A stretch of DNA of 64,000 bases from a virus: positions 14,997-78,996 of IMG/VR virus record IMGVR_UViG_3300028844_001691, one strand, 5' to 3'. The notes beneath the pieces are model-generated. The model was not told the origin of the DNA. It saw only the letters and a program-made list of their open reading frames with translations, and did not search any database. Shown piece by piece: positions 11,062 to 46,648 of this stretch. A program made the translations under genes and the position numbers. The stretch's first letter is position 1. Each line of letters starts with the position of its first letter.

Positions 11062-11212
11062 TTGCTTTGCCTCTGTTTTTAGATGTATTCTCTTTGTGTG
11101 GCACAGGTTCAGTTGCACCAGTTAGTTTTTTGAGCCTAGTAAATGCATCTTCATCCATGCCTGCGAAAATCCCTCTTGGGTTTCTCGGTTGTTTGTTTTG
11201 TTTGTTTTTCAT
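10991..11212 (-). CDS. small basic hypothetical protein
   Basis: Starts at the upstream stop (TAATG) but overlaps the Nfu gene by about 70 nt. Confidence 0.4.
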   Translation of the reverse strand: MKNKQNKQPRNPRGIFAGMDEDAFTRLKKLTGATEPVPHKENTSKNRGKANDSKNKRRNSKRNKPSSGTKHST

Positions 11213-12315
11213 TACTTCCTTTTTGGAATCTTACTGTCAGCACTGCTGACACAACTTGGGGAAATACAAGGCATAGGTTTATCAAATAATTTAAACCCTG
11301 TCTCTATATTTCCTAGTGGACTGTCACTGCAACTATAACTTCTCTTAATTGATCCATCGGGTTCTCTTATTATAATTCCTTGGAACCCTGCGTTACATTT
11401 CCAGCCTGTAAATTTGTTAAAATTAAACGCATTAAAGCGTTCTGCTTGATCCATGTACCATTTCTTGCCTTTATTATCTTCAAACTCAACTTGAAAATGT
11501 TGTGGTACTATGCCATTATCTAATTTCATTTCTGGTAAAGGCTTCCAGTTTGGCTTAGGTCTACTTACATATTTATTTTTTTGTTCTGTATAAGCACGTT
11601 GTGGCATATCATTATACAACTTTTGCTTCATTTCTTCTGTATAACCGTCTACTACTCTACTTGCCGTTGGATCACTTTGCGGCTTTAGTGTTACGTTAAT
11701 ATTTTGATTATGAAAGAACAATGCATTCTCATAATACTCGTCAAACTTTTCAGGTACCATAACCATATTAATTGTTACTTGTACATCATGTTCTTGACAT
11801 AGTATTAACTTATCTGCAAGGTCCTGCATTTTCTCAGGTGTATCAACGTGTTCAACGTGTAAACTACAAGTAATACTAGCACGGTGAAACTTACTTGCAT
11901 AGTCGCAGTATGTTTGAAACCATTTCTTATTACGACTACAATTACTAGTCATATGTACACTTGTATAATTTGTGTTGTGTGTATCGTCACTTAAATGTTT
12001 AAGTATATCTAAATAGCCAGGATGAAATGTTGGTTCACCTCCACTTAAACTAAAATGAAAACTATTGAAACCATTATCTCTTGCTTGTCTTTTGATCTCA
12101 TCAATAGTTCGTAAACATAATTCAGTTGGGCGATGATCTTTTCTATCACTACGAGCATAGGGCCAGCAATAACTACATTTGTAATTACAGAAGCGTCCTA
12201 GCAACCAACTTACAGTAAATATATCTCTATGAAGTAAAGTACGTTGTCCTACACTGACTATATCGTCATAGGGTATAGCACTAAAATCGTATGCACTTGT
12301 TTTTAAATCACTCAT
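11212..12315 (-). CDS. radical SAM enzyme with C-terminal Twitch/SPASM-like Cys domain
   Basis: CNYKCSYC, SGGEPT, C-terminal CNAG...DG...SC...GNI...C...C. Confidence 0.92.
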   Translation of the reverse strand: MSDLKTSAYDFSAIPYDDIVSVGQRTLLHRDIFTVSWLLGRFCNYKCSYCWPYARSDRKDHRPTELCLRTIDEIKRQARDNGFNSFHFSLSGGEPTFHPGYLDILKHLSDDTHNTNYTSVHMTSNCSRNKKWFQTYCDYASKFHRASITCSLHVEHVDTPEKMQDLADKLILCQEHDVQVTINMVMVPEKFDEYYENALFFHNQNINVTLKPQSDPTASRVVDGYTEEMKQKLYNDMPQRAYTEQKNKYVSRPKPNWKPLPEMKLDNGIVPQHFQVEFEDNKGKKWYMDQAERFNAFNFNKFTGWKCNAGFQGIIIREPDGSIKRSYSCSDSPLGNIETGFKLFDKPMPCISPSCVSSADSKIPKRK

Positions 12316-12457
12316 CTTTTATCTTTATATGTTGATAATCTATATACTGTGAACACCACTCATAAAAATGTTTATCTGTATCAGGCCAACACTCGGCAAA
12401 TACCGGATCTTTTCTGTGTTCTTTAAACTCTGCTCTTACTTCTTTTTCACTCAGCAT
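12308..12457 (-). CDS. 49-aa small protein (not in ORF track)
   Basis: MLSEKEVRAEFKEHRKDPVFAECWPDTDKHFYEWCSQYIDYQHIKIKDE; fills the gap and overlaps both neighbours. Confidence 0.65.
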   Translation of the reverse strand: MLSEKEVRAEFKEHRKDPVFAECWPDTDKHFYEWCSQYIDYQHIKIKDE

Positions 12458-12800
12458 CTAATCTACTTTTCTTTAAATTCTTAACCAATGCACCATAATT
12501 TGTATTATGCATTCTACTTTGTTTTGTTGTTTCATAAAATGGTTTGCTACACATTCTTGTACAAGCCGGCATTGGATTATTTGTAAAAGATTGTTCTATC
12601 ATATAACTTGCTTCACTACGATTAATTTCATCTAATGTTCCACTTGTGATATGAAGTTGTTCTAGTTTATCGCCAACTACTTTTTTTAGTTGTAAAAACT
12701 CAGGTTCGCCTGCTACATGACAACAAGGTACAATATATCCATCTACTCTCATAGCAGGTACTTGGTCATCTCTGTGTTTACACTTTGGAAAAATAGTCAT
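12447..12800 (-). CDS. stand-alone SPASM/Twitch-like Cys-rich protein
   Basis: PKC...DGYIVPCC...ACTRMC, matching the C-termini of the type-A radical SAM paralogs; AAGGAAG before TTGATG. Confidence 0.8.
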   Translation of the reverse strand: MTIFPKCKHRDDQVPAMRVDGYIVPCCHVAGEPEFLQLKKVVGDKLEQLHITSGTLDEINRSEASYMIEQSFTNNPMPACTRMCSKPFYETTKQSRMHNTNYGALVKNLKKSRLDAE

Positions 12801-13503
12801 CAACTTCCTTCTGAATAACAGTCCATTCTTTACTTTTTAATTGCATATGTTTTGGTGTTCTACCATCGCCTATAAATATTCGTAAAGTGTGAACATCTTG
12901 TTCTTGTGCAAATTTACACATATCTAAAGTTTGATGATAGTTGTGTTCAAAAATAATATGTCTTAAATCTATTTCTGCATCACTGTTATGATCCAACAAA
13001 CTTTGTTTTAAAGTTTTCATTCCCTCAATTATAGTATTCCATTTAGAGTTAACTCTGTAAATAGGATTAGTATCTTCTAATCCGTCTATAGCAAATTCAC
13101 ATCTGTCTCTGCCTTTTAGCACACTTCCTAAATGATGCCACCATTCTTTAGTGCGTCCACTTCCGTTTGTATGAATATTAATCCACGGACGTTTTTCTAA
13201 TGTATTCAAATGTTCTAATTGTTTTAGAAACACTCCGCTATATATAGGATCACCTAATACTAAACTAAAAGTTAAACGATGAATTTTATTCTCAGGTCTA
13301 ACCAAATGTTTAAAGTCTTGTAAACTCATGTCTGTTATATCGTACATAATAGAACTTTCACCTGACTTATACTTTGCCATAATTTTTGTTCTAGCACAAC
13401 CCGGACACATACAATTACATCTTGTAGTTGACTCCACTTGCATCCGTGTACCTTGTTCAAGGTAAACTGAATTATTAAGACCTTCGTAACCTTCTTTAAT
13501 CAT
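12778..13503 (-). CDS. radical SAM enzyme (type A, lacking a fused SPASM domain)
   Basis: CNCMCPGCAR, GDP, HTNGS, FAIDGLEDTNPIYR, IFEHN. Confidence 0.9.
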   Translation of the reverse strand: MIKEGYEGLNNSVYLEQGTRMQVESTTRCNCMCPGCARTKIMAKYKSGESSIMYDITDMSLQDFKHLVRPENKIHRLTFSLVLGDPIYSGVFLKQLEHLNTLEKRPWINIHTNGSGRTKEWWHHLGSVLKGRDRCEFAIDGLEDTNPIYRVNSKWNTIIEGMKTLKQSLLDHNSDAEIDLRHIIFEHNYHQTLDMCKFAQEQDVHTLRIFIGDGRTPKHMQLKSKEWTVIQKEVDDYFSKV

Positions 13504-14818
13504 TAAACAAATCTTTATATCTTGGTGCTACATCTAATATATTTTGACCTCTTGCTTTGTCTAAATACTTTGTAAACTTAACAAACGAATCTATTTCATT
13601 AGAATAGTCTTCTGATTTACAATATTGTAACACACTGTCTAGTATTTTGCAAGCCTTTTCTGATTGTAGTTCAGTAAATTCACCTTCATAAATCTTCTTC
13701 CATCCATTATAAAACGTCTCTAAATCTTCCTTTAATTTAGGAGTTAATAATCTAATATTAGCACGTTTAGGTCCGTGTGCTACATGGTGTGTGATCACTG
13801 GTCTCTTTTTTGTACTGTTTATTTTTTTCCAGCCACTGCCGGCAACTTTCCATTGCATAAACTCTGGTAAGTGCCATATGTTATTAACTGTAACAGTAAA
13901 GGCAACCCAAGCCATAATGTTTTTATTCTCTTGACAGAATAAATCCAACTTGTCTAGGTTCTTTTTTGCTTGTTCCCATTTAATTGGATAACGCTGATAT
14001 TCTAAAACTTTACCAAACCCGTCAATACTAGCACCAACTCTAACTTGTTTAAATGACTTCCAATATTCTAAAACTTTGTCTGGTAATGTTGTCATATTAG
14101 TATTGTATTCAAGTATAATGTTTTTAGCAACATCTTTCTTAACACACTTCTCTAAAAACTCATAATGGCGTTCAATCATCATAGGTTCGCCACCTGCCAT
14201 ATAAACGTGTTGTATTTTATCTAAATTCTTTTCTATATTGTTCCAAAAACTAGTAGAGCCATGCCAATTATAATCGTTAGTTTCTAATCTACCTTTAGCA
14301 TTACGATTAAGTTTAACATAACCGTGTGTATCTTGGAATCCTTCTTCTTTATGATAGTCAGTCCATTGTTCATACCAACTATGACTATCTGTTGGTCCAC
14401 ACATACGACACTGCAAATTACATAAGTTACCAAATCTTAAATCATAATAAACAACAGGTGCATCTTCAGTATTAATGCTTCCATCTTCTTTTGTAACTCG
14501 TTGTGCTTCTTTAAAATCAAAATCCCATTCAGATAATTCGTATTGACGTCTACTATTAAGTCCTACTTGTTCTTCTTGTTGACATCTTGTACATTCATCA
14601 CTCCAAACACCGTTAAGCATATTCTTTCTAACAGTTTTCATTAGTTCTGCATTACGAGCCTGTGCCATACTATGCTTACCTGCATTATAAGGACTACCAT
14701 CTTTATGTCTAACAACTCCTTGGTTCTTAGTCACATTGGCTTGACAACAGATTCGAATGTCTCCGTTATTTCTAACTGCTTGGAAGTTCCAAGGTATAGG
14801 GCAAAATGTTTTACTCAT
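13496..14818 (-). CDS. N-terminal Twitch-domain radical SAM enzyme (type B)
   Basis: FCPIPW...CC...CTRC, then DLRFGNLCNLQCRMC, GGEP, YNTN, SIDG, YQRYP. Confidence 0.93.
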   Translation of the reverse strand: MSKTFCPIPWNFQAVRNNGDIRICCQANVTKNQGVVRHKDGSPYNAGKHSMAQARNAELMKTVRKNMLNGVWSDECTRCQQEEQVGLNSRRQYELSEWDFDFKEAQRVTKEDGSINTEDAPVVYYDLRFGNLCNLQCRMCGPTDSHSWYEQWTDYHKEEGFQDTHGYVKLNRNAKGRLETNDYNWHGSTSFWNNIEKNLDKIQHVYMAGGEPMMIERHYEFLEKCVKKDVAKNIILEYNTNMTTLPDKVLEYWKSFKQVRVGASIDGFGKVLEYQRYPIKWEQAKKNLDKLDLFCQENKNIMAWVAFTVTVNNIWHLPEFMQWKVAGSGWKKINSTKKRPVITHHVAHGPKRANIRLLTPKLKEDLETFYNGWKKIYEGEFTELQSEKACKILDSVLQYCKSEDYSNEIDSFVKFTKYLDKARGQNILDVAPRYKDLFND

Positions 14819-16319
14819 TTATTTGTTCCTTAATATCCTTTGCAATATCAGGATATAATTCTTCAAAGTTTTCATCTCTACTTGCATCTAATATTTTTGT
14901 AATACGCATAAATTCAGGCAAAGCATCTGTTGTATCATTTGCATTCATAAAAGCAATCATATTGTCTAATCCTTTGCAGATTTCATTATATAAACTTTCT
15001 CTGCCGTGATCCCATTCTGTAATAATCTTTAAGTCTTTCCCTAAAACTGTTTGCATGGGTGCTTCTGCGTTCCTCATTTTATAATCTTCAGGCTTACTAT
15101 CAATCCAATTACGAAGCCAGCCTTCTTTCCATTGCTTAAAGTGTTCTTCAACTCTTTGTTTAGTTTTTTTAGGGAGAGAAGTTACACTATAATGAACTGG
15201 GTTATGCACTGGGTGGTATGTAAAACAAGGACTTTGCGAGTATCTATTAAACTTATAAAAGTTTTGTTCTAATATCCACTCTATTAAATCTGTTACATTT
15301 AACACATTTAATATTTGCCAAGTAAACGTAAGCCAACAATTTACATTGTTACTGCTTTCAGTATCTAACTTATGAATGTTCTTTGTTACTTGCTCCCACT
15401 TACTCGGATGTCTTATATAGTTATTTATCGGTCCAATAGCGTCTACACTTCCTCCAACATTTACTTGTTTGAAGTGTTTCCATTGATCTAATACACGTTG
15501 TGGAATGCTTGTAAAATTTGTATTGTAATCTAATTCCATGTTATGAGCAGTACCTGAATCAATATACTTTTGTAATAATTCAAAGTTCTGTTGAATAATT
15601 AATGGTTCACCTCCACTTATAAACATTTGCTTTAGTTCAGGTGCATCTTTTTGAAGTATGTCAGCAACATCTACACGCTCGGTCCATTGATAAGGATTGT
15701 CTCCTACAATCTTTGCTCTGCTTCCGTCCATTTCTAAAGCAACTCTGTGACCATAACTTTTAAATCCTGTATAGCCTGTTGTTTTCATCCATTCAGTATA
15801 CCATTGATGACTTTCAGTAGGTCCACACATTCTACATTTTAAGTTACAAGTATTATCCATTCTAATATCTAAATCTAACAAAGGATATTCTTTTGTATCT
15901 ATTGTTCCATCTTCTTTTGTGTTTGCTATTGCATCATCAACATCAAACTCATTCCAATAACGATTCATGTCAACCCAACGTCTACTCTGTGAGCCTGAAT
16001 CATCTTCTTTATTACATCTTGTGCAATGTTCACTTCGTTTACCAGCAATCATATCACGTCTAGTTTCTTTCATAATCTCACTATTACGAGCATCTGCTAA
16101 ACTTGTATCTTCAATACGCATTGTTTTATCGTCGCTATCTTTACAAACACCACGGACTTTTCTATTAGCCGCGGCTTGTACACACATACGATAATCACCG
16201 TTGTTGTTTATTCCTAAACTTAACCATGGAACAGGACAAAAGCCATTACAACCTTTGGCTTTTAATTCTTGTTCGTATTGTTGTGGATTATTATAATTGT
16301 TTCTGTCGAAGTGTTTCAT
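14811..16319 (-). CDS. N-terminal Twitch-domain radical SAM enzyme (type B)
   Basis: FCPVPW, CTRC, CNLKCRMC, SGGEP, YNTN, YIRHP. Confidence 0.93.
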   Translation of the reverse strand: MKHFDRNNYNNPQQYEQELKAKGCNGFCPVPWLSLGINNNGDYRMCVQAAANRKVRGVCKDSDDKTMRIEDTSLADARNSEIMKETRRDMIAGKRSEHCTRCNKEDDSGSQSRRWVDMNRYWNEFDVDDAIANTKEDGTIDTKEYPLLDLDIRMDNTCNLKCRMCGPTESHQWYTEWMKTTGYTGFKSYGHRVALEMDGSRAKIVGDNPYQWTERVDVADILQKDAPELKQMFISGGEPLIIQQNFELLQKYIDSGTAHNMELDYNTNFTSIPQRVLDQWKHFKQVNVGGSVDAIGPINNYIRHPSKWEQVTKNIHKLDTESSNNVNCWLTFTWQILNVLNVTDLIEWILEQNFYKFNRYSQSPCFTYHPVHNPVHYSVTSLPKKTKQRVEEHFKQWKEGWLRNWIDSKPEDYKMRNAEAPMQTVLGKDLKIITEWDHGRESLYNEICKGLDNMIAFMNANDTTDALPEFMRITKILDASRDENFEELYPDIAKDIKEQINE

Positions 16320-17520
16320 ATATTGGACTTAAATCATGGATATTTGTTTTTCTTATTTCATCGAGCCTATCGTTGTAGTCAAAGAATTCAGTTTTTAGAT
16401 TTTGTAACACAGTTTCATTATTTTTAAAAGGGTTACGTTGTGTATAGTATAAAAGTGAATTACAAATATCTGGTAAAATATCTTTGTTTTTTAATTCTTT
16501 AAGTTGTTCTGCTACAACAGTCTTAAATTCTTCAGTAAGGTTTCTAACTGTTATACGTCTAGGAGCAGTAGCATCAATTACATTAAAATCAAGTTGGACA
16601 TTATGTCTCCATTTTAGTTCATCTTGTAAATTTTTTAGTTCAGGTAACCAATCTTGTACTGTAAAACAAAGATACCAACTCCAAACAATATTAACACCCA
16701 TTCCAGAAATGTTTGGAATTAAGTTTGGCATTTTCAATATGTTTTCTCTTATCTTGTCCCAATTAGCATTTGTTCTAACATAGTTATATGTTGGTCCTGT
16801 ACCATCTAAACTTAATTGTATTTTACAATCTTTAAATTGTTTAACTGCTTTAACCCAATTAGGATTTACATTAGTTGCATTTGTTGTATAACGCAAGTGT
16901 AGATTCTTTGCGTAGTCGTTTGTTGTAACCCAGTCAAGTAATTTTTGTATTTGTGGATCGATTGTAGGTTCACCGCCTAATAATTTTAAAAACGATAAGT
17001 TTCTAAATGTGGTATCGTTTGCAATAGCAGGAAGTAAATCAGAATCTGTAACGTCTAAACTATCTTCTGTCCATCTTTTTAAATCTGGGTTGGCTATTGT
17101 TTCTTTTGCGATTAAACTACTATTACTCGGACTACACATTCTACATTTAAGGTTACATAAATTTCCTGGTCTGTAGTCTAACCATTTTAGGTTAAATTCA
17201 TCTGTATGTTCGTTGTACCATTCATGTGCATCTTGTTTTTTACCTAATATGTTTCTATTAAATGTTTTTCTATCAGATTCCATTCCTGCTTCTTGTTGTT
17301 CTTGACAAACTTTACATCCAGGATGCCATTTGCCGTTTTCAATCGATTTTCTAACACTTTTAACTATGTCACTATTAAAGTAATCTTCAGGACTTTCAGC
17401 AGATGTCCATGTATTAAAGACACAACACATTTTATATTTTTTTTGACTTTCTTTATAGTAAGAAGCCTGCCATGGAGCAATACAAAATACGTCGTGGTTA
17501 ACTGGAAATTTTTTAGCCAT
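16291..17520 (-). CDS. N-terminal Twitch-domain radical SAM enzyme (type B)
   Basis: FCIAPW, MCC, CKVC, CNLKCRMC, GGEP, TTNAT, SLDG. Confidence 0.93.
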   Translation of the reverse strand: MAKKFPVNHDVFCIAPWQASYYKESQKKYKMCCVFNTWTSAESPEDYFNSDIVKSVRKSIENGKWHPGCKVCQEQQEAGMESDRKTFNRNILGKKQDAHEWYNEHTDEFNLKWLDYRPGNLCNLKCRMCSPSNSSLIAKETIANPDLKRWTEDSLDVTDSDLLPAIANDTTFRNLSFLKLLGGEPTIDPQIQKLLDWVTTNDYAKNLHLRYTTNATNVNPNWVKAVKQFKDCKIQLSLDGTGPTYNYVRTNANWDKIRENILKMPNLIPNISGMGVNIVWSWYLCFTVQDWLPELKNLQDELKWRHNVQLDFNVIDATAPRRITVRNLTEEFKTVVAEQLKELKNKDILPDICNSLLYYTQRNPFKNNETVLQNLKTEFFDYNDRLDEIRKTNIHDLSPIYETLRQKQL

Positions 17521-18236
17521 TATTTTTTAACTGTCTTAAATATATCTGTTAACGGCGGATAGCCATAAACATTGTCTACATTATTTGGTATATAAGGTAT
17601 TCGTTGTTCTTTTCCTGTTCTAGGATCGTCATAATTGTATTTTACACCTGGATCTTTTCCATATCCAACACCCATAATAATTACAAATCTCATTGCACGT
17701 TCGTCTTCATCTAGTTTAAATACTTTTGATGCATATTCGTAATCACTACAAATGTTTTGACATATACCTGTTTGTATTCCTCTGTTTGCTAGAGCATACA
17801 TAAGTGTTACTGCCGCAATACCTACTTCAATGTTTTCAGTTTGTGTTTGTGCAACATCACTATGTTTTTTACCAGTTCCTTTACCGTCTAAATAAGCACG
17901 TGAAGTAGACTTGTCAAACATTCCTTCTCTGTCTGCAACCCATCTACTACAAAAGCCTATTAGCCAAGGTGCCAACACTTGTGGATTACCTCTGTCATTT
18001 TCTAATTCATCAGGCCCCCATTCGCCATTACGTTGACAAATAGTCATAATGTTTTTTCTTATTTCTGGATCATCATTACGCAACAGTTTTACTTGATATG
18101 GAAATTGTCTATTTTTTGAAGGTATGTGTTCTAATACTTCAGCAAATACATCATATAATTCTTCTTCAGTTGGTATTTTATCTTCTCTCCACGCAAAAGT
18201 TGTATGTCTTGCGTTAATTAAATCAAGCCATTCCAT
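17520..18236 (-). CDS. nitroreductase-family protein
   Basis: INARHTTFAW, IPSKNRQFPY, ALANRGIQTG, MGVGY. Confidence 0.7.
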   Translation of the reverse strand: MEWLDLINARHTTFAWREDKIPTEEELYDVFAEVLEHIPSKNRQFPYQVKLLRNDDPEIRKNIMTICQRNGEWGPDELENDRGNPQVLAPWLIGFCSRWVADREGMFDKSTSRAYLDGKGTGKKHSDVAQTQTENIEVGIAAVTLMYALANRGIQTGICQNICSDYEYASKVFKLDEDERAMRFVIIMGVGYGKDPGVKYNYDDPRTGKEQRIPYIPNNVDNVYGYPPLTDIFKTVKK

Positions 18237-19497
18237 TTATGTATCTCCTTAATTCAGGAACTAGTTCCAGTACATTTGTATTTCTAATCTTATCTAATGC
18301 GTTAGTATGTCTAACGTATCTAGACTTTTCTTTTTCTGTGTCTAACTCTTGTGTTAATTCGGTTTCTAAAGTAACTAAAGATGATAACACAGGATCGTTG
18401 TCTTTATAACGTTCCTTTAATGTATTTAACTTATTACTGATAAGTTTTTTATGGTCATTATCTAACCAACCTACACACAAGTACATAGGATCAACTAAAG
18501 GTAACAAACTTATGCCTTTGAACTTGTCTCCGCCATATGTTTTACCTAATTCATATAATTCAGGGAACCATTTGTCTATACTAAATGCATTTGTCACTTG
18601 CATAACACAATTAATACCTTGCCATTCTAAATTCTTTATTTTAAATATATCTTTAAAGTTTTCCACACACTTATCGTAGTTTGAATTTGTTCTTAAGTAA
18701 TTGTTTAACAACCCTGTACCATCAAAACTTGTGTTAATAGTTAATTTATTAAACTGTTCTAACAACGGCTGTAGTTTAATTGGATTGACTGTTCCGTTAG
18801 TAAGTAAGTGTAAATTAATACCTTTTGCATAACCCGAGTCGGCTACACGTTGTAACATTTTAATAACACGTTTGTCTACAAGTGTTTCACCTCCAGACAT
18901 CTTTAACCATTTAACATTTTCTAAATCAAAGTTACTTACAATATCAAAGTCATCACTTTCCCAATCGATAGCATTAACTGTTTCCATTTGTTTTTTACTT
19001 GTTGTGATAGTGTCCCAATACCATTCTTTGCCTTGTATCTCTGGATTGGCTAAAACTTCTTTTTCAATTTTATCACTCCAAACAGTATTACAACTTCTAC
19101 ATTTTAAATTACATAGTTTACCAGGACGTAAGTCTATGTCTAAAGGTTTATTGTGTTTATTACCTGTTACTGTATTCAATTCTAGTTCTTCAAAGTCTAA
19201 TTTATTCTCATAACGTTTGAGTAATTGTATTCTTTGACTTTGTTCTGTGTTGCCTTTTGCTTCGTGTTCTTTACAATACCAACAAGCCTTAGGAAATTCC
19301 TCTTTCATAAAAGACTCTCTAGTCTCTTGCATAAATTCTCCGTTCCAAAAGTCTTGAAATGTTTCTTGTAAAGGTTTTGTGCCATCAAATCTGCCAACAA
19401 TATCACTCATACAACAAAGTTTGTGTGCTCTGTTGTTTGCATTGATATACCCATGTACGAAAGGTGCTGGGCAAAAATTCTTTTTATTTTTAAGCAT
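18223..19497 (-). CDS. N-terminal Twitch-domain radical SAM enzyme (type B)
   Basis: FCPAPF, LCC, CWYC, CNLKCRSC, SGGET, LTNGT; likely start ATG 19497. Confidence 0.92.
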   Translation of the reverse strand: MLKNKKNFCPAPFVHGYINANNRAHKLCCMSDIVGRFDGTKPLQETFQDFWNGEFMQETRESFMKEEFPKACWYCKEHEAKGNTEQSQRIQLLKRYENKLDFEELELNTVTGNKHNKPLDIDLRPGKLCNLKCRSCNTVWSDKIEKEVLANPEIQGKEWYWDTITTSKKQMETVNAIDWESDDFDIVSNFDLENVKWLKMSGGETLVDKRVIKMLQRVADSGYAKGINLHLLTNGTVNPIKLQPLLEQFNKLTINTSFDGTGLLNNYLRTNSNYDKCVENFKDIFKIKNLEWQGINCVMQVTNAFSIDKWFPELYELGKTYGGDKFKGISLLPLVDPMYLCVGWLDNDHKKLISNKLNTLKERYKDNDPVLSSLVTLETELTQELDTEKEKSRYVRHTNALDKIRNTNVLELVPELRRYINGMA

Positions 19498-26577: not shown

Positions 26578-26593
26578 ACGATTGCTTATTATT

Positions 26594-26621: not shown

Positions 26622-26649
26622 CCTATTATCCGTGTTATTATTGGAGAAA

Positions 26650-26788: not shown

Positions 26789-26821
26789 ATATGTATAAGT
26801 TAAACAAAACAGGAGATACAT

Positions 26822-38085: not shown

Positions 38086-39272
38086 TATTCGTCACCCTCA
38101 AAGTTTTTTTGTCTTTCTTCTTTTACTGCAATATTAGTAGATATCGTTGGCGCTATTACTTCACCAGTTCTAAAATCTTCTAATGTCCGCATATTGGTAG
38201 CGGGCCAGGCTACTCGTTTACTACAAGTAGTTGAACATATTCTATAACGATCCTTAGGACCTAAGCCATGTTGTTTGGCTTCCCAACTATCTACTAAATC
38301 TTCTTTAAAGAATGGATGCTCCATTACTTCGTCCCAAGTGTGCTCATATAAGTTGTTAAAGTTTTTATCGTAGTTTAAGTCGATATGATCTCTTTGTTCG
38401 TCATTACGCATATACTTTGCACTAGTAAAATAACAACAAGGCCATAGTCTACCATCATAACTTAAATGATATTGTTTTAATTCTGTTCTCCAACGACAGT
38501 CAATTGGATCATTTGGTACTTCAGTACTATCAAGTACTTGATGATATCTTCTAATTTTTTTCATATCGCCTTTGTTCTTTAGTAAGTATTCATCTAAATT
38601 ATTTAACAAAGGACTTTTATTTTCTCTTACTTTAAATTTAGTAAATCCCATAGACTTTGCTAAAACTCTTGCTTCTAATAGTTGATGTTTGTTCCACGGA
38701 AACTCTAGCATTTGCCAACTAGCTCTGCCACCTGCATCAATAAATGCTTGTGCGTTTTCCATAATCTTATCCCAACGACAATTTTTACGATACAAATGAT
38801 TAGTATCTTCTAATCCGTCTATACTAAAGTGAACAGTATGGTCGCCTGGACCTCTGCCACGTGATAATAAAACTTCAGCAAACTCTTTTAAGTACTTAGG
38901 TGTACGCATACTTCCATTAGTGTGCATACCAATATAGATATCTGGTCTAATTGAAAGTAAGTGATCAGTTATGCCTATTAAGTCTTTATGTCCTAACGGA
39001 TCATCGATTGTACCAGTGTACTGTACTTCTTTAATATTAGTAGCACCAGTCATAATATTTGTTATTAATTCTTTAGTTGCATACTTAGGCTTTCCTAATC
39101 CGGGTCTATTCTTCATAGGCAAGTTTTCGATGTTAACATTAACACCTTCTGTTTGAAGCCTTTTCAATTCGTTAAAGTCAATAGTGTTACGTTGACAACT
39201 ACTGCATAATGCATTACATACATTACTCAGTTCAAACTGAATGCCGACTGGGTTTGGTAAGTATGCACCCAT
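38085..39272 (-). CDS. radical SAM enzyme with C-terminal SPASM-like domain (type A)
   Basis: CNALCSSCQR, HTNGS, FSIDGLEDTNHLYR, LWPCC...ICSTTC. Confidence 0.92.
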   Translation of the reverse strand: MGAYLPNPVGIQFELSNVCNALCSSCQRNTIDFNELKRLQTEGVNVNIENLPMKNRPGLGKPKYATKELITNIMTGATNIKEVQYTGTIDDPLGHKDLIGITDHLLSIRPDIYIGMHTNGSMRTPKYLKEFAEVLLSRGRGPGDHTVHFSIDGLEDTNHLYRKNCRWDKIMENAQAFIDAGGRASWQMLEFPWNKHQLLEARVLAKSMGFTKFKVRENKSPLLNNLDEYLLKNKGDMKKIRRYHQVLDSTEVPNDPIDCRWRTELKQYHLSYDGRLWPCCYFTSAKYMRNDEQRDHIDLNYDKNFNNLYEHTWDEVMEHPFFKEDLVDSWEAKQHGLGPKDRYRICSTTCSKRVAWPATNMRTLEDFRTGEVIAPTISTNIAVKEERQKNFEGDE

Positions 39273-40786
39273 TAACTACACACCTTTACACCATATGCTT
39301 GTTCAAATCTATCTGCATCTGCTCTATCATTAACCATAGGCTCGCCTCTAATATTTAAACTTGTATTAAGTAAGATAGGACAACCTGTTAGTACATACCA
39401 TTTTTCTAATAGTTCTCTAACTCCACTAGGAAAATATTCGTCTACTGTTTGTACACGACTTGTTCCATCAACGTGTATGATTGCAGGAAACTCGTCTGGC
39501 TTCTTACACTTTGCAACCACTTGCATATAAGGACTTGTTTGCATTTGTGGAGGCATTTCAAAATATTCATGAACGTGTTCTGCTAATATCATAGGAGCAA
39601 ATGGTCTAAACTTTTGTCTGCGTTTAATCTCATTTACTTTGTCTTTGATTTCTGCTCCTCGAGGATCTGCTAATAAACTTCTATTACCTAATGCACGTGG
39701 ACCAAACTCTGCTTTACCACTTGCAACTCCTACAATCTTATTCTTTTGTAGTTCATCAATTAAAGCATCTGTTGGATATGCACCTGGGATAGGTGTTCCT
39801 AAGAATGGAGTCTCCCAATTAAGTTTACTACCATAAGCCAATGCCGCGGCACCTAAGGCACTGCCACAGTCTCCTGGGTTAGGCATAATCCAAATGTCAT
39901 CAAAGAAATTACCAAGTCCTCTATTGTATAAACAGTTAAGAGCAACTCCTCCCATGTAAACTAAATTACGGCTTTTATTAAAACCTCTAGCTCTTGCCAT
40001 TACGTTATCAATAAGTTGTTCTACAACTGCTTGAGCACTTGCGGCGATATCATATTCGTTAACATCTTTTAAAAAATCTTTGTCTACACCAATGTGTAAG
40101 TTATCTTTAAATCTACCATCAGAGTCGTCGTGTAATAGTGCATCATAAATTTCTTTTTCGTGTGTAGGTTTACCCCAACCAGCCATACCCATCATAATAT
40201 ATTCTTCGTCTAATGGACGTAAGCCAAGTCGATGCGTTAATGCACTATAGTATAAACCAATACTGTGTGGATACTTCTGACTCCACAACTTTTTATATAC
40301 TGCATTCATCTTCTCATCGTATTCGGCGTGCCATATACTAATAGTTTCCCATTCGCCAATAGCATCGATAACAACAACAGTTGCATCATTAAATGGACTA
40401 GTCTGAAATCCAGCCGCCGCATGAGTGTGATGATGTCTATAAGTATGAAGCATCGAGTCAGGCAAATAGTTCTTGTTATCAAATGTGAATTGTTTATTAA
40501 GAGCACCTCTGGTAGTCCATGTACTACTGCGATCGCCAAACATTCCTTGTCCAGCATATAGTTCTCTAGTCTTTTTTAACCAAGGTGTTTCGTAAAATCC
40601 AATAGCATCAAACTTTCCATATCCTTCTTGATATGATAATGCTTGTTTAATTATTGGTTCACACAAATCTTTGTCATGTTTTTTCTTACTGTATCTTTCA
40701 CTATGTCCAGCAAAAACAATTTCGCCATCTTCAACAACAGCCAAACCTGCATCGTGAAATCCTGCACTTACTCCTAGTGTTAACAT
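39272..40786 (-). CDS. O-carbamoyltransferase (NodU/CmcH/TobZ family)
   Basis: FHDAG, HHHTHAAA, DAIGE, GGVALN, EFGPRALGNRS, FRPFAP, HVDGTSRVQ, LNTSLN; start at 40786. Confidence 0.95.
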   Translation of the reverse strand: MLTLGVSAGFHDAGLAVVEDGEIVFAGHSERYSKKKHDKDLCEPIIKQALSYQEGYGKFDAIGFYETPWLKKTRELYAGQGMFGDRSSTWTTRGALNKQFTFDNKNYLPDSMLHTYRHHHTHAAAGFQTSPFNDATVVVIDAIGEWETISIWHAEYDEKMNAVYKKLWSQKYPHSIGLYYSALTHRLGLRPLDEEYIMMGMAGWGKPTHEKEIYDALLHDDSDGRFKDNLHIGVDKDFLKDVNEYDIAASAQAVVEQLIDNVMARARGFNKSRNLVYMGGVALNCLYNRGLGNFFDDIWIMPNPGDCGSALGAAALAYGSKLNWETPFLGTPIPGAYPTDALIDELQKNKIVGVASGKAEFGPRALGNRSLLADPRGAEIKDKVNEIKRRQKFRPFAPMILAEHVHEYFEMPPQMQTSPYMQVVAKCKKPDEFPAIIHVDGTSRVQTVDEYFPSGVRELLEKWYVLTGCPILLNTSLNIRGEPMVNDRADADRFEQAYGVKVCS

Positions 40787-41790
40787 TAAGCTCGTCTCTC
40801 CAAGTCTAACGTGGCACAATGATGACCTCCACCTAGTGTACGACTATGTGTTAGTTGTACAGGTATAACTTCAAACTTTGCACGTTCTAATTTTTTAATT
40901 AATTTTGGTTGTCTAGGATCTACAATAACTGTTTTAGGATCTACACTTAAAACATTCATACCAATCCAATTACTTGCATAAGGATAATTATGAAACTCCA
41001 TATCCTCTACACTGTCTACCCAAATACGTTTATGCTTCTTTAAAAATTTCGGTAATTGTGAAGGTTTAACTCTTTGTTTGTTAATTAACAATGTCGATTC
41101 ATTCAACGCACATATTGTACTGTCGATGTGTGCATAAGCATAAACATCTTCCCATATGTGAACTGTATACTCAGACCCGAGTACTGTACTTAACCAAGCC
41201 GCTCCAGCCGAATTACCTGTTTGACTTTTTAAGTATAACAAGTCATTGCCAAAACGTAAAACGTTTGCGGCATCAAATATAGGAGTCTTTTCTGTAAGTT
41301 TACCATTTTCAAATACTTCGTGTACTGGTAATGCATGACGTGGAGCACTAATCCATTTAACACCAGACTTCATTGCTTCGTGTCTAATATCTCTATATGC
41401 TTCTGTTTCGTGAAACCTACTATGAAACAATACAGGAGTTTCAATTACTGTATTGCCTACTACAAGTATAACATCTCTTGGACAATAATTATAAAACCCA
41501 TCTGCAAAGTATCTATATCCATGTACTGTTTGTTGAAAGTCTAATTGTCTTGGACGTAAAACTTCGACGCCTAAATCTGTTAATACTTTTTCAAATTGTC
41601 GTAGTTCATGGTCTGTTAAATCTAATATGTCTTTACTAATTGGTCCAACTGGTTGTGCAGATTCAGTCCACTTGCTATGTTTAGCAACTTCATTAAAGAC
41701 ATCATCATACTTTGGAAATCTTGCACCGTGAACATCTCCTAATACAACTCTTTTTAATGGATCCCATTCATTGTGCGATTCAATAATCAT
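40786..41790 (-). CDS. amidinotransferase (glycine / inosamine-phosphate amidinotransferase family)
   Basis: NEWDPL, YCPRD, FDAAN, HIDST, GGGHHCATLD with catalytic Cys. Confidence 0.93.
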   Translation of the reverse strand: MIIESHNEWDPLKRVVLGDVHGARFPKYDDVFNEVAKHSKWTESAQPVGPISKDILDLTDHELRQFEKVLTDLGVEVLRPRQLDFQQTVHGYRYFADGFYNYCPRDVILVVGNTVIETPVLFHSRFHETEAYRDIRHEAMKSGVKWISAPRHALPVHEVFENGKLTEKTPIFDAANVLRFGNDLLYLKSQTGNSAGAAWLSTVLGSEYTVHIWEDVYAYAHIDSTICALNESTLLINKQRVKPSQLPKFLKKHKRIWVDSVEDMEFHNYPYASNWIGMNVLSVDPKTVIVDPRQPKLIKKLERAKFEVIPVQLTHSRTLGGGHHCATLDLERRA

Positions 41791-42485
41791 TTCGTGTTTC
41801 CTATTTTAAAACATTTTGTAATACTTGGATACTTCACGTGTTGTGGCATTTTTTCTTTATACTGATCCAACTTAACTATACCAACTGCCGATTGTTCTGG
41901 CGACAGATAGTAATGATATCCAATTTCTTCATATTGCTCTTTATCCCAAGGAGACACTTTTAGGTCTCTACCATCGTACCTAGAGCGAATAATCCAATCA
42001 TATGCTTCTCTATTATCTAATAGTATAGCACCGCCTTTGCCAATTGTCAATGGTTTTCCATTGCCAAAGCTCAAGCATTTGAACGTTTCTGCTTCATACA
42101 TATTACGTTGTAATCTTCTAGCACTGTCAAATATAGGTAATTGTCCTAATTTATATTCGCCAATCCATTTATCTTCATTGATATTAAAAGATAAATCTAA
42201 ACGTTTAAGCATCATAGGAATACTTAAATATGTTTGATCAGGTATATCAATATGTGGAACACGATTTGGGTGTTTTCTTTTATACCACCTTATACATAAT
42301 TCGATTGCGTGTGTGCAACAATCAGTTGTTATCACATATGGTGCTCCAGTATAATCAGCAAGACGTTTTTCAAATTCGCTTATAACATCATACGGATCAT
42401 TCCAACTAACACCATAATCTTTTAACATCTCTAGGATGTCAAGATTAATAATGTCCTGTAATTTGTAAGGTGTATCTTGGTTCAT
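41787..42485 (-). CDS. DegT/DnrJ/EryC1/StrS aminotransferase, short form
   Basis: FEKRLADY, DCCTHA, DSA, SFGNGKPL...GGAI. Confidence 0.85.
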   Translation of the reverse strand: MNQDTPYKLQDIINLDILEMLKDYGVSWNDPYDVISEFEKRLADYTGAPYVITTDCCTHAIELCIRWYKRKHPNRVPHIDIPDQTYLSIPMMLKRLDLSFNINEDKWIGEYKLGQLPIFDSARRLQRNMYEAETFKCLSFGNGKPLTIGKGGAILLDNREAYDWIIRSRYDGRDLKVSPWDKEQYEEIGYHYYLSPEQSAVGIVKLDQYKEKMPQHVKYPSITKCFKIGNTK

Positions 42486-42969
42486 AACCTATATTGCCTG
42501 CACTGTGTGGAACTCTTCCACGCCAAAGCACGGCTCCTCCTTTGTGCCAATTCATACTATATTGGTCTACTTCAAACATATGTCCTTGTTTTTTATCTTC
42601 TAAAAATACTAAACAACGTAACACATCATCACTACTTTCGATATGAAAGAGTTCTTTATATTTGTTATAGTGATCTGCGTGTGGTGGTAGTATGTCACCT
42701 GTTGTCATTTTATAGAATGTATAACCACAGTCTTTCCATTCTAAAATTTTTCCAATGTCTTTTGCCCATTGCGGAATTGCTGACTGATCATTAAACATCA
42801 TACCAGTAAAGTTATCATGTGTATGTCCAGCAGTTCTCCATTTTGCTAATTGCTCTAAGTCTCCGTAGGCAACTCGTTTATAATCAAAACTTTCAAAGTC
42901 TTTTGTTTCCCATACAGGATCAAGTTCCAGTGTATGATATTCTAAAGGACTAATCTCTTGTGTTGCCAT
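42445..42969 (-). CDS. 2OG-Fe(II) oxygenase-like protein
   Basis: LPPHAD...PHSAGN...RYTLQITG. Confidence 0.7.
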   Translation of the reverse strand: MATQEISPLEYHTLELDPVWETKDFESFDYKRVAYGDLEQLAKWRTAGHTHDNFTGMMFNDQSAIPQWAKDIGKILEWKDCGYTFYKMTTGDILPPHADHYNKYKELFHIESSDDVLRCLVFLEDKKQGHMFEVDQYSMNWHKGGAVLWRGRVPHSAGNIGYEPRYTLQITGHY

Positions 42970-44098
42970 AATGTATTACTTTCACTTTTGGATCTTTGGC
43001 TGTGTATGTACGCCATGGATCGAAAACTATTGTTGCACTGTCGACATTAAAGTTATGGTCAGTTGGGTGAGTTATAACCATAACTTCAACTGCATGGTCG
43101 AAACCATTAACAATCATTCCACCCAACTTTCCAATATAGTGTTGAACTAGTAATGCATAAGATCCATCAGTGTATGCTACTCCTGGCTTATATGTATCAC
43201 TCGTAAAGCAAATTTGCTTTCCATGTTTTAATATTTCTTTTGCCATACGTTCGGCTTGTACTTCTCTACTTTTGGCAATCGCGTCGAACAAGTCATATCC
43301 TAAGTCTAATCGTTCCGCTAAATGTCTTAGGGCAATATTATCTCTAGGGTGACAAGGTCCACCGTCGCCCATGCCTGCTTTCATATAAGCGGCACTGGTT
43401 ATTCGGTATCCTGCATTACTTAAACTATTTGTTACAACATCAACATTCATATTCCCAACACTTTGGGCAACGTCTTGAATCATATTAACTAGACTTAACC
43501 TTGCACTAATAAATGTGTTGTAAAATATTTTTGTTGCTTCTGCTTCTTCCCATGTACCAATATTATAATGCGGATCATTCTCCATTACTGTTTTGTAAAA
43601 TTTTACTAATGCTTTTGCATCAGTGTCGTTTGGTTTGTTGCCTCCAATGATAACCATATCTGGATTTACCATATCCCAAGCAACTGTACCCATAGCAATT
43701 AAGTATGGGTTATAAATTAATCTTGCTTTATCTAATAAGCCTGCGAATTCTCTTCTTGTTGTTCCTGGAAGTACTGTACTAATCAAAACAACAATAGTAT
43801 CTTCTGTTGCGTATTTGTTAATTTCTTTTAAACATTCTTTAACAGGATCTAAACCAAAGTCTTTGTTTGGTAAATGTGTTATAGGAGTTTCTCCACCATA
43901 GTCTTTATGGTGTGGAGTTTGTACTGCAACAAAGACAAAGTCCTGTCCTACTACTGCTTCTTTTGGTGTCTTAGACACTCGTACAAGCCCACTAAAGCGT
44001 TCTTCTTTGTCATACCCTGTAACTGTATGTCCTTTTTTAACTAGCATCTCAGAACTAATCATTCCAAGTTTTCCTAAACCAAACCAGCCTATTTTCAT
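42950..44098 (-). CDS. UDP-glucose/GDP-mannose dehydrogenase family
   Basis: GLGKLG, AVQTP, STVLPGT, GDGGPCHPRD, YKPG. Confidence 0.9.
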   Translation of the reverse strand: MKIGWFGLGKLGMISSEMLVKKGHTVTGYDKEERFSGLVRVSKTPKEAVVGQDFVFVAVQTPHHKDYGGETPITHLPNKDFGLDPVKECLKEINKYATEDTIVVLISTVLPGTTRREFAGLLDKARLIYNPYLIAMGTVAWDMVNPDMVIIGGNKPNDTDAKALVKFYKTVMENDPHYNIGTWEEAEATKIFYNTFISARLSLVNMIQDVAQSVGNMNVDVVTNSLSNAGYRITSAAYMKAGMGDGGPCHPRDNIALRHLAERLDLGYDLFDAIAKSREVQAERMAKEILKHGKQICFTSDTYKPGVAYTDGSYALLVQHYIGKLGGMIVNGFDHAVEVMVITHPTDHNFNVDSATIVFDPWRTYTAKDPKVKVIHYGNTRD

Positions 44099-45300
44099 AA
44101 TTCTAATACCTTTGTGATATGTTTTCTAATCTCACCTGTTCTAATTAAGTTGCGATTGTGTATAAGGATTGGTCTCATATGTTTCTTTATTGTTTCTAAT
44201 TCTTTATATGATTGATTACTAATGTCGATAATAATATCAAATACTTTATCCATTCTTTTAATAGGATCAACTTCCTCATCGTAACTTTCATCCCAAAACT
44301 CGTGGAATGTTTTTGCTCCCCAATGCTTTAACAAGTCTAAACTATGTACACCTGCTAACAATAATACAGGTGAACCTTGCTTCATAGGGTTTAATGTTTT
44401 TTCACTTATTTGTCCCCAGGGGTATTCGTAATTTGTTTCACATACCAGACTAGCAAACGAGTTCCAATAAGTATCTTCTAACGGATCAGAAGTAGTAATA
44501 TTATTTATGGCTCCTACTTGTGGGCTCATATAATCTTTCATGCTTACTACTTGACATTCAGTATCTTCTTTTGTTAACGGTAAATGAGTCATAAGGTCTT
44601 TACAACCTTTGCTATAAGATTCAAAATGTTTACTGTTGTTTAATGGAAATTTTAAAAGTACATCATCTGTTTTATGATAATGCGTAATAACACTGTCCTT
44701 TGGCATTGTGTTATATAAGAAACTAACAGCCGCGTGTCTATGCTGATCCCAGCGATATGTAAAACAGTTTATTTTATGATTAATTTCTTCTGGTAGACCA
44801 TTGCTAGGTTCTCTGTTATAATGACAAGCACCTAAACTAAAAGTGTCTAATGGGTAAATTGCCCAGTCGGAATACTTTGTGTTTTGTAATTGCTCTAACA
44901 TACGATACTCATTTGTAAATATTTTAAACTTACAGTTGTGTTTATTACACCAGTTTTGTATCATATCGAATTCATTGATGCTACAATCTTCTTGTATTAA
45001 CCCGTCTGGGCAACTATACCTGGAGTGATTTTGCCATACTGATAATACTTCGTACAAAAAGAAATATACTGTCGTATGGTCTACAAAGTTAATACTTGAA
45101 TCTGACCAAGATTCGAACCATTCACACGGACCGTCAAATATAAAATAAGGGGTTTTGATTTCTAAACTTTGGAGTGATTCTGCTGTTTTTCGAAATCTTC
45201 CACGTGTGTCACTAAATTTAGTGATGGTTGACGTTGCATCAACTACAGAGTGGTTTATTGCTTTGTTAATATTATTTATGTAAATTGAGTTAAATTGCAT
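44095..45300 (-). CDS. putative glycosyltransferase-like protein
   Basis: C-terminal LVCET...ISEKTLNP...G.KTF...DESYD, reminiscent of GT10-like donor-binding motifs. Confidence 0.5.
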   Translation of the reverse strand: MQFNSIYINNINKAINHSVVDATSTITKFSDTRGRFRKTAESLQSLEIKTPYFIFDGPCEWFESWSDSSINFVDHTTVYFFLYEVLSVWQNHSRYSCPDGLIQEDCSINEFDMIQNWCNKHNCKFKIFTNEYRMLEQLQNTKYSDWAIYPLDTFSLGACHYNREPSNGLPEEINHKINCFTYRWDQHRHAAVSFLYNTMPKDSVITHYHKTDDVLLKFPLNNSKHFESYSKGCKDLMTHLPLTKEDTECQVVSMKDYMSPQVGAINNITTSDPLEDTYWNSFASLVCETNYEYPWGQISEKTLNPMKQGSPVLLLAGVHSLDLLKHWGAKTFHEFWDESYDEEVDPIKRMDKVFDIIIDISNQSYKELETIKKHMRPILIHNRNLIRTGEIRKHITKVLEL

Positions 45301-46648
45301 CGAACCAAGCCATATATTCGGGAAAAACTTCGCTAAAAATGGTACTTCTACGTTTATCGAGCTCTTTAGTATATACTTTAAAGTTCTGCTTATGATTATT
45401 ACTATCTACTGTTTGTTGACTTCTCCAGTATTCAATAATACGTTCTAGTTTAGCAGTTTCACTATTATGCATTAACTCTACAATTTCCATCTGTTTCATA
45501 TACTCAACTGTATTAGTCATGTATTCTTCAAATGTTTTATCTAGTATTTTAACATCCATCATCTCAGGATATCTTAAAAAAGGTATGTCAATGTACATAC
45601 AATCTCTACCGTATTGTTTTCTTATTTCAACTAAATCTTTTAGGAAGTCTTTGAATGATGTTACACTTAATGCATTGTAGGTACACATGAATGTAACTAC
45701 AAACCTGTCTTCATTTTTAAATTCTTCTAATACACGTTTTACATTTTTTATAAACTTGTTATAATCTAAACCATTTCTAATATACTCTGCTTTATTACCA
45801 AATGCTTCTGCACTTGTGTAAACTTCTAGTTTACGAACTTTGCCACTTGCTAATACTTTCTTTGCTTGATTAATAAACTTATCGAATAGTTTGTCCTCAA
45901 CACAAAAGTTACTATTAATACCTAACAGTAAATCTTTATTTGGTTTATCTGTTTCAATGATCCAGTCCATCATTTTAAATGTGTTCTTGTTCATAAGTGG
46001 CTCGCCACCTGTAACACGGAACGTATGCAATGCTGGATACAACTCAGGCCACCATTCCCAAAATGCTTCTACATATGGATTGTGTTCTCTTTCTGGTATA
46101 GGCATTCTGCCTCTACGTTCTGTCCATGTTATGTCGTTGTAATTATCTGAAGTGCTAAAGCCTCCATGTTGTTTTACTTCTTGCATCCACGCACTACTAA
46201 TAGCAGGACTACAATACATACATTTAAAATTACAAGCATAACCAAAACTTACTTCTACATAACTTGGTTGAAAGTTTGTACTCCAATCATTATTTTTAAT
46301 TGTATCAAAGTGTTTGTTACTCCAACTAAATGCACTCTTTAAATGTCTGTCACTTAAAGCATTTGGATCTGCATCTTCAACTCTCCAACAGTAGTCACAT
46401 TCTTTAGGTCTACCACCTTCAAGCATTTCTTTACGTTGTTGTTTTTTATATATAGAGTTGTGTAATGAACTAGGGTCTAGTTTAATTTCGTCAACTGGTA
46501 CTTGGTGTACCGGTGGGTGATGACAACTATGTGCAGTTCCATTTTGTAAGTTAAGTGTAAGTTGTGTCCACTTTGCTAAACAGAATCCAGGACCTACTGC
46601 ATTCAGTTTGGCTTTCATTTCATGCGGATCTGTTCCGGTAAAACTCAT
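45290..46648 (-). CDS. N-terminal Twitch-domain radical SAM enzyme (type B)
   Basis: FCLAKW, SCHHP, CDYC, CNFKCMYC, TGGEPL, YIRNG. Confidence 0.93.
   Translation of the reverse strand: MSFTGTDPHEMKAKLNAVGPGFCLAKWTQLTLNLQNGTAHSCHHPPVHQVPVDEIKLDPSSLHNSIYKKQQRKEMLEGGRPKECDYCWRVEDADPNALSDRHLKSAFSWSNKHFDTIKNNDWSTNFQPSYVEVSFGYACNFKCMYCSPAISSAWMQEVKQHGGFSTSDNYNDITWTERRGRMPIPEREHNPYVEAFWEWWPELYPALHTFRVTGGEPLMNKNTFKMMDWIIETDKPNKDLLLGINSNFCVEDKLFDKFINQAKKVLASGKVRKLEVYTSAEAFGNKAEYIRNGLDYNKFIKNVKRVLEEFKNEDRFVVTFMCTYNALSVTSFKDFLKDLVEIRKQYGRDCMYIDIPFLRYPEMMDVKILDKTFEEYMTNTVEYMKQMEIVELMHNSETAKLERIIEYWRSQQTVDSNNHKQNFKVYTKELDKRRSTIFSEVFPEYMAWFDAI

Follow-up and report, generated by a model that had tools for sequence, protein, structure and literature searches.

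What would a virus do with sixteen radical S-adenosylmethionine (SAM) enzymes, and on which substrates would they act? The question is raised by a 64,000-nucleotide stretch of viral DNA (the window, meaning the whole of the DNA analyzed here) that comprises bases 14997-78996 of the 78,996-bp IMG/VR record IMGVR_UViG_3300028844_001691, for which CheckV gives a completeness of 22%. The window is collinear, at a nucleotide identity of 70-89%, with a viral record of 306,714 bp (G001) that encodes a T4-type gp23 major capsid protein, and we therefore assign its phage to the uncultured T4-like jumbo phages, with a genome of roughly 300 kb or more. Between positions 11212 and 46648 lie 16 open reading frames (ORFs), all on the minus strand, with the CxxxCxxC motif of radical SAM (rSAM) enzymes; we name each by its first coordinate in the window (28733, for example, is 28733..30148). 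On balance, we favor reading this array as the phage copy of an old, modular sugar-tailoring island, in which an activated sugar, aminosugar or cyclitol would undergo radical tailoring and then be transferred.

Each of the 16 ORFs contains exactly one CxxxCxxC motif and none has an internal stop, in agreement with the initial annotation of this DNA, which had described sixteen intact proteins. The whole window holds 17 such motifs, against 0.25 expected from cysteine content (computed on six-frame segments of at least 80 amino acids [aa]); the seventeenth, at 52393-52722 on the plus strand, is antisense to a gene. The Pfam Radical_SAM family (PF04055) matches all 16 proteins, and 11 reach or exceed its gathering score of 29.5 bits. 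Four of the five that fall below it (18223 at 17.1, 28733 at 20.8, 30141 at 24.1 and 45290 at 22.0 bits) are full-length matches to the NCBIfam family NF033640, and the fifth, 23458 (23.1 bits), is 33-37% identical to 19490 and 32241 of the second group described below. All-against-all BLASTP resolved three classes of ten (group A), five (group B) and one (11212), with identities of 19-34% within group A and 23-37% within group B, while links between classes reached only 20-28% and were confined to parts of the common rSAM core. The strongly diverged ten/five/one split proposed earlier was thus recovered by an all-against-all comparison. One member of each class, namely 11212 (plain rSAM), 28733 (N-terminal Twitch domain) and 32241 (C-terminal Cys-rich domain), belongs to a trio that recurs in other genomes.

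The ten group-A proteins score 226.5-424.9 bits against NF033640 (twitch domain-containing radical SAM protein, or N_Twi_rSAM; N_Twi hereafter), for which the cut-off is 170, and their alignments span model positions ~1-397 of 398. The five group-B proteins and 11212 reach only 30-54 bits, over the core alone, and are not members. All ten share, without exception, four cysteines (C12, C30, C95 and C98 in 28733 numbering), the cluster motif and GGE, and the GGE SAM-binding motif (G226, G227 and E228) is also invariant in 59 homologues. A profile of the ten proteins aligns with BtrN's twitch domain, which is C-terminal (4m7t residues 185-258), at an E value of 1e-4. Family membership and this profile match agree with the Twitch-like domain first annotated at the N terminus: judged by sequence, it is a Twitch-type auxiliary-cluster domain, with predicted [4Fe-4S] binding.

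The group-A genes are 13496..14818 (440 aa; NF033640 365.5 bits; G001 ortholog 83% identical, ratio of nonsynonymous to synonymous substitution rates [dN/dS] 0.10), 14811..16319 (502 aa; 338.4 bits; 67%, 0.21), 16291..17520 (409 aa; 263.6 bits; 54%, 0.37), 18223..19551 (442 aa; 242.7 bits; 82%, 0.08), 22170..23474 (434 aa; 359.9 bits), 25369..26577 (402 aa; 257.4 bits; G001 counterpart only 48% identical), 28733..30148 (471 aa; 424.9 bits; dN/dS 0.07), 30141..31352 (403 aa; 226.5 bits), 35395..36573 (392 aa, with a TTG start; 234.7 bits) and 45290..46648 (452 aa; 326.5 bits; 86%, 0.12). The trio member 28733 is the best conserved of these, with 64-93% identical relatives in at least 80 viral contigs and an orthogroup present on 181 viral stretches. 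A profile search with the family returned ~7,000 clusters at 50% identity (E≤1e-30); a cluster look-up yielded only uninformative names. Tandem N_Twi fusions also occur among metagenomic proteins, with two or three modules per protein of 800-1400 aa. We modeled 22170 with AlphaFold2 (AF2; pLDDT 92), and its best matches in a fold search of the PDB were generic rSAM cores (Z 11-13), with no function-specific neighbor. Since these neighbors mix maturases (anSME, SkfB, SuiB and CteB) with sugar and nucleoside enzymes (BlsE, viperin and DesII), structure does not settle the substrate class.

The GD(P) and F(S/G/A)(I/V)DG motifs noted earlier for group B hold up in the group alignment, while the accompanying SPASM label overstates its C-terminal domain. 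This domain has ~5 conserved cysteines in the pattern C...(P)CC...CxxxC rather than the seven-Cys SPASM pattern (CX2CX5CX3C-containing), and in the Pfam SPASM search (PF13186, cut-off 21.5 bits) only 38085 (20.4 bits) and the ORF at 12447 (18.2 bits) scored, both below the cut-off. From its sequence it is better described as twitch-like or partial SPASM. The group comprises 19490..20563 (357 aa, C-terminal Cys-rich domain; Pfam Radical_SAM 31.3 bits; 25-33% identical to other group-B proteins; G001 ortholog 89% identical, dN/dS 0.07), 23458..25035 (525 aa, with N- and C-terminal extensions and CxxxCxxC at residue 55; G001 ortholog 87%, 0.14), the trio member 32241..33326 (361 aa; dN/dS 0.10; 4740 database proteins match at E≤1e-5), 38085..39272 (395 aa; Radical_SAM 44.9 bits) and one enzyme that is split. 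The first half of the split enzyme, 12778..13503, is a 241-aa rSAM core (30.9 bits, CxxxCxxC at residue 29); the second, 12447..12803, overlaps it by 26 nt and encodes a 118-aa Cys-rich C-terminal module that aligns to the PCC...CxxxC part of the other group-B proteins, and is the separate SPASM-like domain of the initial annotation. Because the identical split is found in G001 and in a Bdellovibrionia chromosome (L170:14475-15584), we regard it as an old arrangement in two genes rather than a lesion, and the two products look like subunits of a stable form. The stand-alone enzyme of the trio, 11212..12315, is 367 aa long (Radical_SAM 51.9 bits), and its G001 ortholog is 95% identical (dN/dS 0.05).

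The rSAM genes are under purifying selection and show no decay. For 13 of them, G001 has a counterpart at the equivalent position, with 48-95% identity and dN/dS of 0.05-0.37 (ratios that are approximate, as dS between the window and G001 is 0.7-1.9), and the trio genes are the most conserved (88-95%). Nor did the 16 ORFs reach the NCBIfam equivalog cut-offs for the housekeeping families MoaA (58.1 against 284), NrdG2 (20.7 against 131) or QueE (23 against 206-300), so that neither housekeeping assignment nor neutral decay, the two observations named beforehand as speaking against a diversifying arsenal, was found. A tree built from 56 N_Twi proteins of five large phage records pairs the paralogs of the window with orthologs from other phages and not with one another, indicating that the N_Twi paralogs predate the divergence of these phages. 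Three genes, 30141, 35395 and 38085, have no G001 ortholog (the best G001 match of 30141 is a 27% identical paralog), from which we conclude that single rSAM cassettes have been gained and lost. This process is not limited to rSAM genes, since three non-rSAM island ORFs (9674-10333, 28046-28693 and 31336-32244) likewise lack a G001 counterpart. Other phage records of the lineage hold 7-17 N_Twi genes each above the cut-off, and each of the five large phage records examined has both architectures; arrays of this kind are frequent in the lineage. Old orthogroups common to several phages, together with cassette gain and loss, fit the proposed diversifying arsenal; the accompanying idea that every paralog acts on a substrate or position of its own is conjectural.

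We also used aligned 28733 orthologs to scan the genomes of species representatives (an alignment of the ten paralogs was too divergent to serve as a query and was dropped, and a scan with 25369 alone gave no loci). The scan returned 69 loci, the majority from Bdellovibrionota with 52-62% identity, among them megabase contigs, complete chromosomes of metagenome-assembled genomes (MAGs) and one cultured Bdellovibrio isolate. Of the 40 long genome-assembly loci, most of them from Bdellovibrionota and a few probably phage contigs binned wrongly, 32 have a 32241 ortholog and 30 an 11212 ortholog within 10 kb of the 28733 ortholog, and a 32241 ortholog lies within the same distance in all 40 long viral loci. 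In Bdellovibrionota, the 11212 orthologs are 50-64% identical and adjoin the other two trio genes. Two proteins without known family, 36560 (288 aa) and 37423 (220 aa; together 36560..38085, minus strand), accompany the trio in 33/40 and 38/40 long viral loci, respectively, and a homologue of 56229, a candidate glycosyltransferase described below, does so in 16/40 long viral and 11/40 long genome-assembly loci. Homologues of all three are often found near the trio in genome-assembly loci too. Neither 36560 nor 37423 has a Pfam, PHROG or PDB match.

The Bdellovibrionota trio loci sit inside contigs of 0.5-3 Mb with ordinary cell genes on their flanks; on one Bdellovibrionia contig, for instance, a compact six-gene cassette is flanked by genes for a MoxR ATPase, an SppA peptidase and a type II secretion system ATPase. 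Each Bdellovibrionota genome carries 7-20 N_Twi genes, partly arrayed, and these arrays include relatives of 45290 at 38-42% identity. In the cultured Bdellovibrio isolate, a 40-kb island combines N_Twi, group-B and 11212-type genes with homologues of further phage genes, including the amidinotransferase (38% identical), UDP-sugar dehydrogenase, DegT-like protein, 44095 and 21229. It also holds three family 2 glycosyltransferases (GT2) above the Pfam cut-off and one marginal one, two of which overlap rSAM genes, as well as an epimerase/dehydratase and a fatty-acid hydroxylase. The whole island type is common to this phage and Bdellovibrionota. For 28733 and for 32241, the phage copies fall into well-supported clades of their own that contain no high-GC bacterial members (support 0.95 and 0.98), which argues against recent transfer between phage and bacterium; the tips were labeled by GC content, a crude marker given the low GC of many marine Bdellovibrionota loci. 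MAG contigs with labels such as Rickettsiales, Gammaproteobacteria or Chloroflexota were rejected as hosts: with a GC content of 0.27-0.37 and, per 21 kb, 5-7 N_Twi genes, they are probably mis-binned phage contigs. Four examples (L100, L101, L143 and L144, with Rickettsiales, Gammaproteobacteria, Chloroflexota and Acidimicrobiaceae labels) have a GC content of 0.27-0.36.

Within the window, the island reads from a tail-fiber-like block (60.8-64 kb) towards SufE and NifU-like genes (10.3-11.1 kb). Upstream, at 60811..63999 on the minus strand, are tail-fiber-like and virion structural genes (PHROGs families), and directly downstream of the array, at 10320..11118 on the same strand, are genes for SufE and NifU-like iron-sulfur (Fe-S) delivery proteins (Pfam 96.5 and 76.9 bits). 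An IscU Fe-S scaffold is encoded at 6304..6723 on the plus strand (PDB IscU chains, E 7.6e-59).

The sugar-tailoring setting envisaged by the initial annotation is likewise present, in the genes described below. An amino-sugar tailoring block at 39272..44098 (minus strand; Pfam and PDB sequence matches) encodes an O-carbamoyltransferase that matches NovN, GdmN and TobZ at E 1e-38 to 1e-51, a StrB1-type amidinotransferase, a short DegT-like protein, a cupin/hydroxylase-like protein and a UDP-sugar dehydrogenase. The amidinotransferase, 40786-41790, is a full-length homologue of StrB1 (PDB 1bwd, E 1e-83), the L-arginine:inosamine-phosphate amidinotransferase of streptomycin biosynthesis. Genes for a cytidylyltransferase, a cupin and a short UDP-sugar dehydrogenase adjoin 32241 (33319..34989, minus strand; Pfam), and a nucleotidyltransferase, a phosphomannomutase-like HAD protein and a RuBisCO-like protein are also interleaved in the island. 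The GT-A-fold candidate glycosyltransferase is 56229..57164 (minus strand), the AF2 model of which (pLDDT 92) matches human B4GALNT1, WrtF, STIV A197 and SpsA with Z 9-10.4 and a root-mean-square deviation (rmsd) of ~3.1-3.4 Å over ~140 residues. Both aspartates of its DxD motif, D65 and D67, are invariant in 25 homologues. As IspD-type nucleotidyltransferases have the same fold (Z 8-9), its activity as a glycosyltransferase is putative.

In the sugar-tailoring reading that we favor, the CxxxCxxC-bound [4Fe-4S] cluster and SAM would generate a 5'-deoxyadenosyl radical, which would abstract hydrogen at a C-H bond in a sugar, aminosugar or cyclitol unit, with the auxiliary cluster accepting an electron or binding the substrate, as in BtrN. 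We infer the substrate class and the reaction types by analogy with BtrN, BlsE and DesII, and depending on the paralog the outcome could be oxidation, epimerization, dehydration, decarboxylation or C-C bond formation. The nucleotidyltransferases and phosphomutase would activate the sugar, the dehydrogenases and DegT-like protein would oxidize and aminate it, and the StrB1-type amidinotransferase and O-carbamoyltransferase would add guanidino and carbamoyl groups, respectively, before the GT-A protein transferred the finished sugar. The phage's own IscU, SufE and NifU-like proteins would supply roughly 30 Fe-S clusters. The accessory N_Twi and group-B paralogs around the trio are gained and lost as cassettes among related phages. 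The acceptor is probably a virion or cell-surface glycoconjugate, because the island sits behind tail-fiber genes.

A broader and more tentative possibility is that T4-like giant phages and Bdellovibrio-type predators share a combinatorial radical system for carbohydrates, in which the trio makes an unusual core sugar and interchangeable N-Twitch paralogs diversify the products. Those products might then be, just as tentatively, strain-specific hypermodified glycans or aminoglycoside-like molecules, displayed on the predator's surface or directed against prey.

Several points weigh against the sugar-tailoring reading. The structural neighbors of the modeled enzyme are generic and include peptide and protein maturases, and the toolkit of StrB1-, TobZ- and BtrN-like proteins fits a free aminoglycoside-like metabolite equally well. 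Only one glycosyltransferase of the window has moderate support, next to a weak Pfam hint of another (58601-59434), Wzx, Wzy and other export genes were not found in it, and ~20 island ORFs have no family assignment. We found no paper characterizing the substrate or product of any NF033640 member. Evidence for expression is also weak: contigs from the metatranscriptome libraries of three studies span many array genes, several at 100% identity, and give a weak hint only, as they carry no strand information and may stem from DNA carry-over.

It is also conceivable, although we think it unlikely, that the array matures proteins or peptides, introducing thioether or C-C bonds or epimerized residues into tail fibers, other structural proteins or unrecognized precursor peptides, in the manner of SPASM/twitch enzymes such as anSME, SkfB, SuiB and CteB. 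The position of the array behind tail-fiber genes would suit such a role, and anSME, SkfB, SuiB, CteB and TigE are among the top structural or sequence neighbors. The scores against models of maturases of peptides that are made by ribosomes and then modified post-translationally, however, are far below their cut-offs, and the rSAM genes are interleaved with sugar-nucleotide, amidinotransferase and carbamoyltransferase genes and, in the Bdellovibrio isolate, overlap GT2 genes. Local peptides, which the initial annotation had suggested as substrates, did not emerge from a search for shared leaders and nearby small ORFs, and a distant or large protein could still be a substrate. Among window ORFs of at least 30 aa, no N-terminal hexamers are shared except by the DUF6071 paralogs, and the gaps of the array contain no Cys/Ser-rich small ORFs; Cys/Ser/Thr-rich small ORFs are likewise missing from the window.

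Next in order of probability, and again improbable in our view, is a free aminoglycoside-like pseudo-oligosaccharide bearing guanidino and carbamoyl groups, which phages and Bdellovibrio-type predators would use against prey or competitors. The full-length StrB1 match, the kinship of the carbamoyltransferase to NovN, GdmN and TobZ and of the twitch domain to that of BtrN, and the occurrence of the island type in two kinds of bacterial predator all speak for such a compound. Pfam reveals no cyclitol synthase (of the 2-deoxy-scyllo-inosose or inositol-phosphate synthase type), exporter or self-resistance gene, a weak objection given that many ORFs are unassigned, while the tail-fiber-proximal position and the GT2-rich bacterial version of the island fit a polymer or glycoconjugate better. 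Finally, hypermodification of nucleotides or DNA bases, or modification of lipids (lipid A or membrane lipids), to which a thymidylate-synthase-like gene and an HNH gene in the window, weak similarity to viperin and QueE as well as to the lipid enzymes Tes and GDGT-MAS, and the fatty-acid hydroxylase of the Bdellovibrio island might point, is very improbable, as the window's nucleotide genes form a separate module on the other strand, the same rSAM sets lie beside GT2 genes in bacterial chromosomes and all such family matches are far below cut-offs.

Marine metagenomes of at least seven studies contain DNA nearly identical to the window; for the 10-kb array part 11212-21200, at least 79% of the length was covered in 14 DNA runs from seven studies. 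Megablast of the window's first 11 kb against GenBank phages gave no match, and the sole GenBank match of 28733 by tblastn was Ralstonia phage RsoM2USA, at 24% identity, so we conclude that GenBank holds no cultured close relative. Searches of the window for tRNAs and Rfam families found nothing.

The array is interrupted by a 1.47-kb block of higher GC content (26577-28046) with plus-strand ORFs at 26822-27073, 27299-27556 and 27668-28138. Near-consensus, divergent sigma-70-like promoters flank this block, at 26594-26621 on the minus strand (11/12 positions) and at 26656-26684 on the plus strand (12/12, with TG), suggesting that the array comprises at least two transcription units. Ends of the G001 contig coincide with the region equivalent to this block.

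Some other ORFs deserve mention. The 401-aa product of 44095-45300 has 10 cysteines, no CxxxCxxC motif and no family or PDB match; it is 67% identical to its counterpart in G001 (dN/dS 0.13) and has a 26% identical homologue in the Bdellovibrio island. PDB sequence searches with 44095, 21229, 37423 and the DegT-like protein 41787 gave nothing usable. Three DUF6071 paralogs interleaved in the island (49226-49933, 50790-51509 and 53033-53905) have a common N-terminal NGDSWTFG block that resembles SGNH/GDSL block I, and a role as sugar O-acyl esterases or transferases is possible. A 240-aa ORF at 8090-8812 matches only the middle of an AMP-binding (adenylation) domain, and could be a fragment or a short form.

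Taken together, these observations describe an enzyme system that is real, widespread and uncharacterized, and that is not unique to this window. For a virus, sixteen rSAM enzymes, which need roughly 30 Fe-S clusters, plus IscU, SufE and NifU-like genes of its own are a very large outlay. The N_Twi family has hitherto been known almost solely from uncultured phages, and the trio, its GT-A partner and the island in a cultured Bdellovibrio offer a concrete route to its chemistry and biological target. Should the product be a glycan or an aminoglycoside-like compound, it would involve new radical carbohydrate chemistry and account for a block, both widespread and variable, that abundant marine phages carry in their host-recognition region; should the combinatorial system indeed be shared, it would represent radical carbohydrate-editing reactions of a new class and a new trait that bacterial predators have in common.

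Arrays of this kind have been reported before, in a T4-like environmental genome of 183 kb with 12 rSAM and Fe-S assembly genes (Nishimura et al. 2017, PMC5332604) and as radical SAM cassettes that pelagimyophages carry in their host-recognition cluster (Zaragoza-Solas et al. 2020, PMC7029224). In both studies the genes were counted or mentioned only, without family identity, the two architectures, the trio or the link to Bdellovibrionota, and we found no paper on the function of NF033640 or of such arrays, or on a Bdellovibrio connection.

Among solved rSAM structures, anSME, SkfB, SuiB, CteB, BlsE, MoaA, viperin and DesII share a common partial TIM-barrel core with the modeled enzyme (Z 10-13, rmsd 3.6-5 Å over 195-220 residues), and none stands out; no peptide substrate was found near the array. 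In the group-B C-terminal domain, ~5 conserved cysteines take the place of the seven-Cys SPASM motif. With the aminoglycoside systems of StrB1 and TobZ, the island has in common a StrB1 homologue and a carbamoyltransferase of the TobZ/NovN/GdmN family. It departs from those pathways in that a cyclitol synthase, a resistance gene and an exporter were not found, and in that its genes lie in a tail-fiber-proximal phage island with 16 rSAM enzymes. BtrN, the archetypal Twitch rSAM enzyme and 2-deoxy-scyllo-inosamine dehydrogenase of butirosin biosynthesis (4m7t), which oxidizes a secondary alcohol of an aminocyclitol, has a homologous auxiliary-cluster domain and a similar aminosugar/aminocyclitol neighborhood, and the group-A cysteine spacing, C-x17-C...C-x2-C, resembles the spacing in BtrN. 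The two differ in domain order, as BtrN has its rSAM core first and its twitch domain at the C terminus while group A has the twitch domain first, and in length, the group-A proteins being 150-250 residues longer with a C-terminal region that is helical; the overall similarity is too low for a shared reaction to be inferred. The closest relationship is to NF033640 itself, which the ten group-A ORFs match end to end, sharing its four-Cys N-terminal domain, CxxxCxxC and GGE. That family is catalogued without an assigned reaction, and here it is represented by ten paralogs of 19-34% identity in a single phage, side by side with a second rSAM family.

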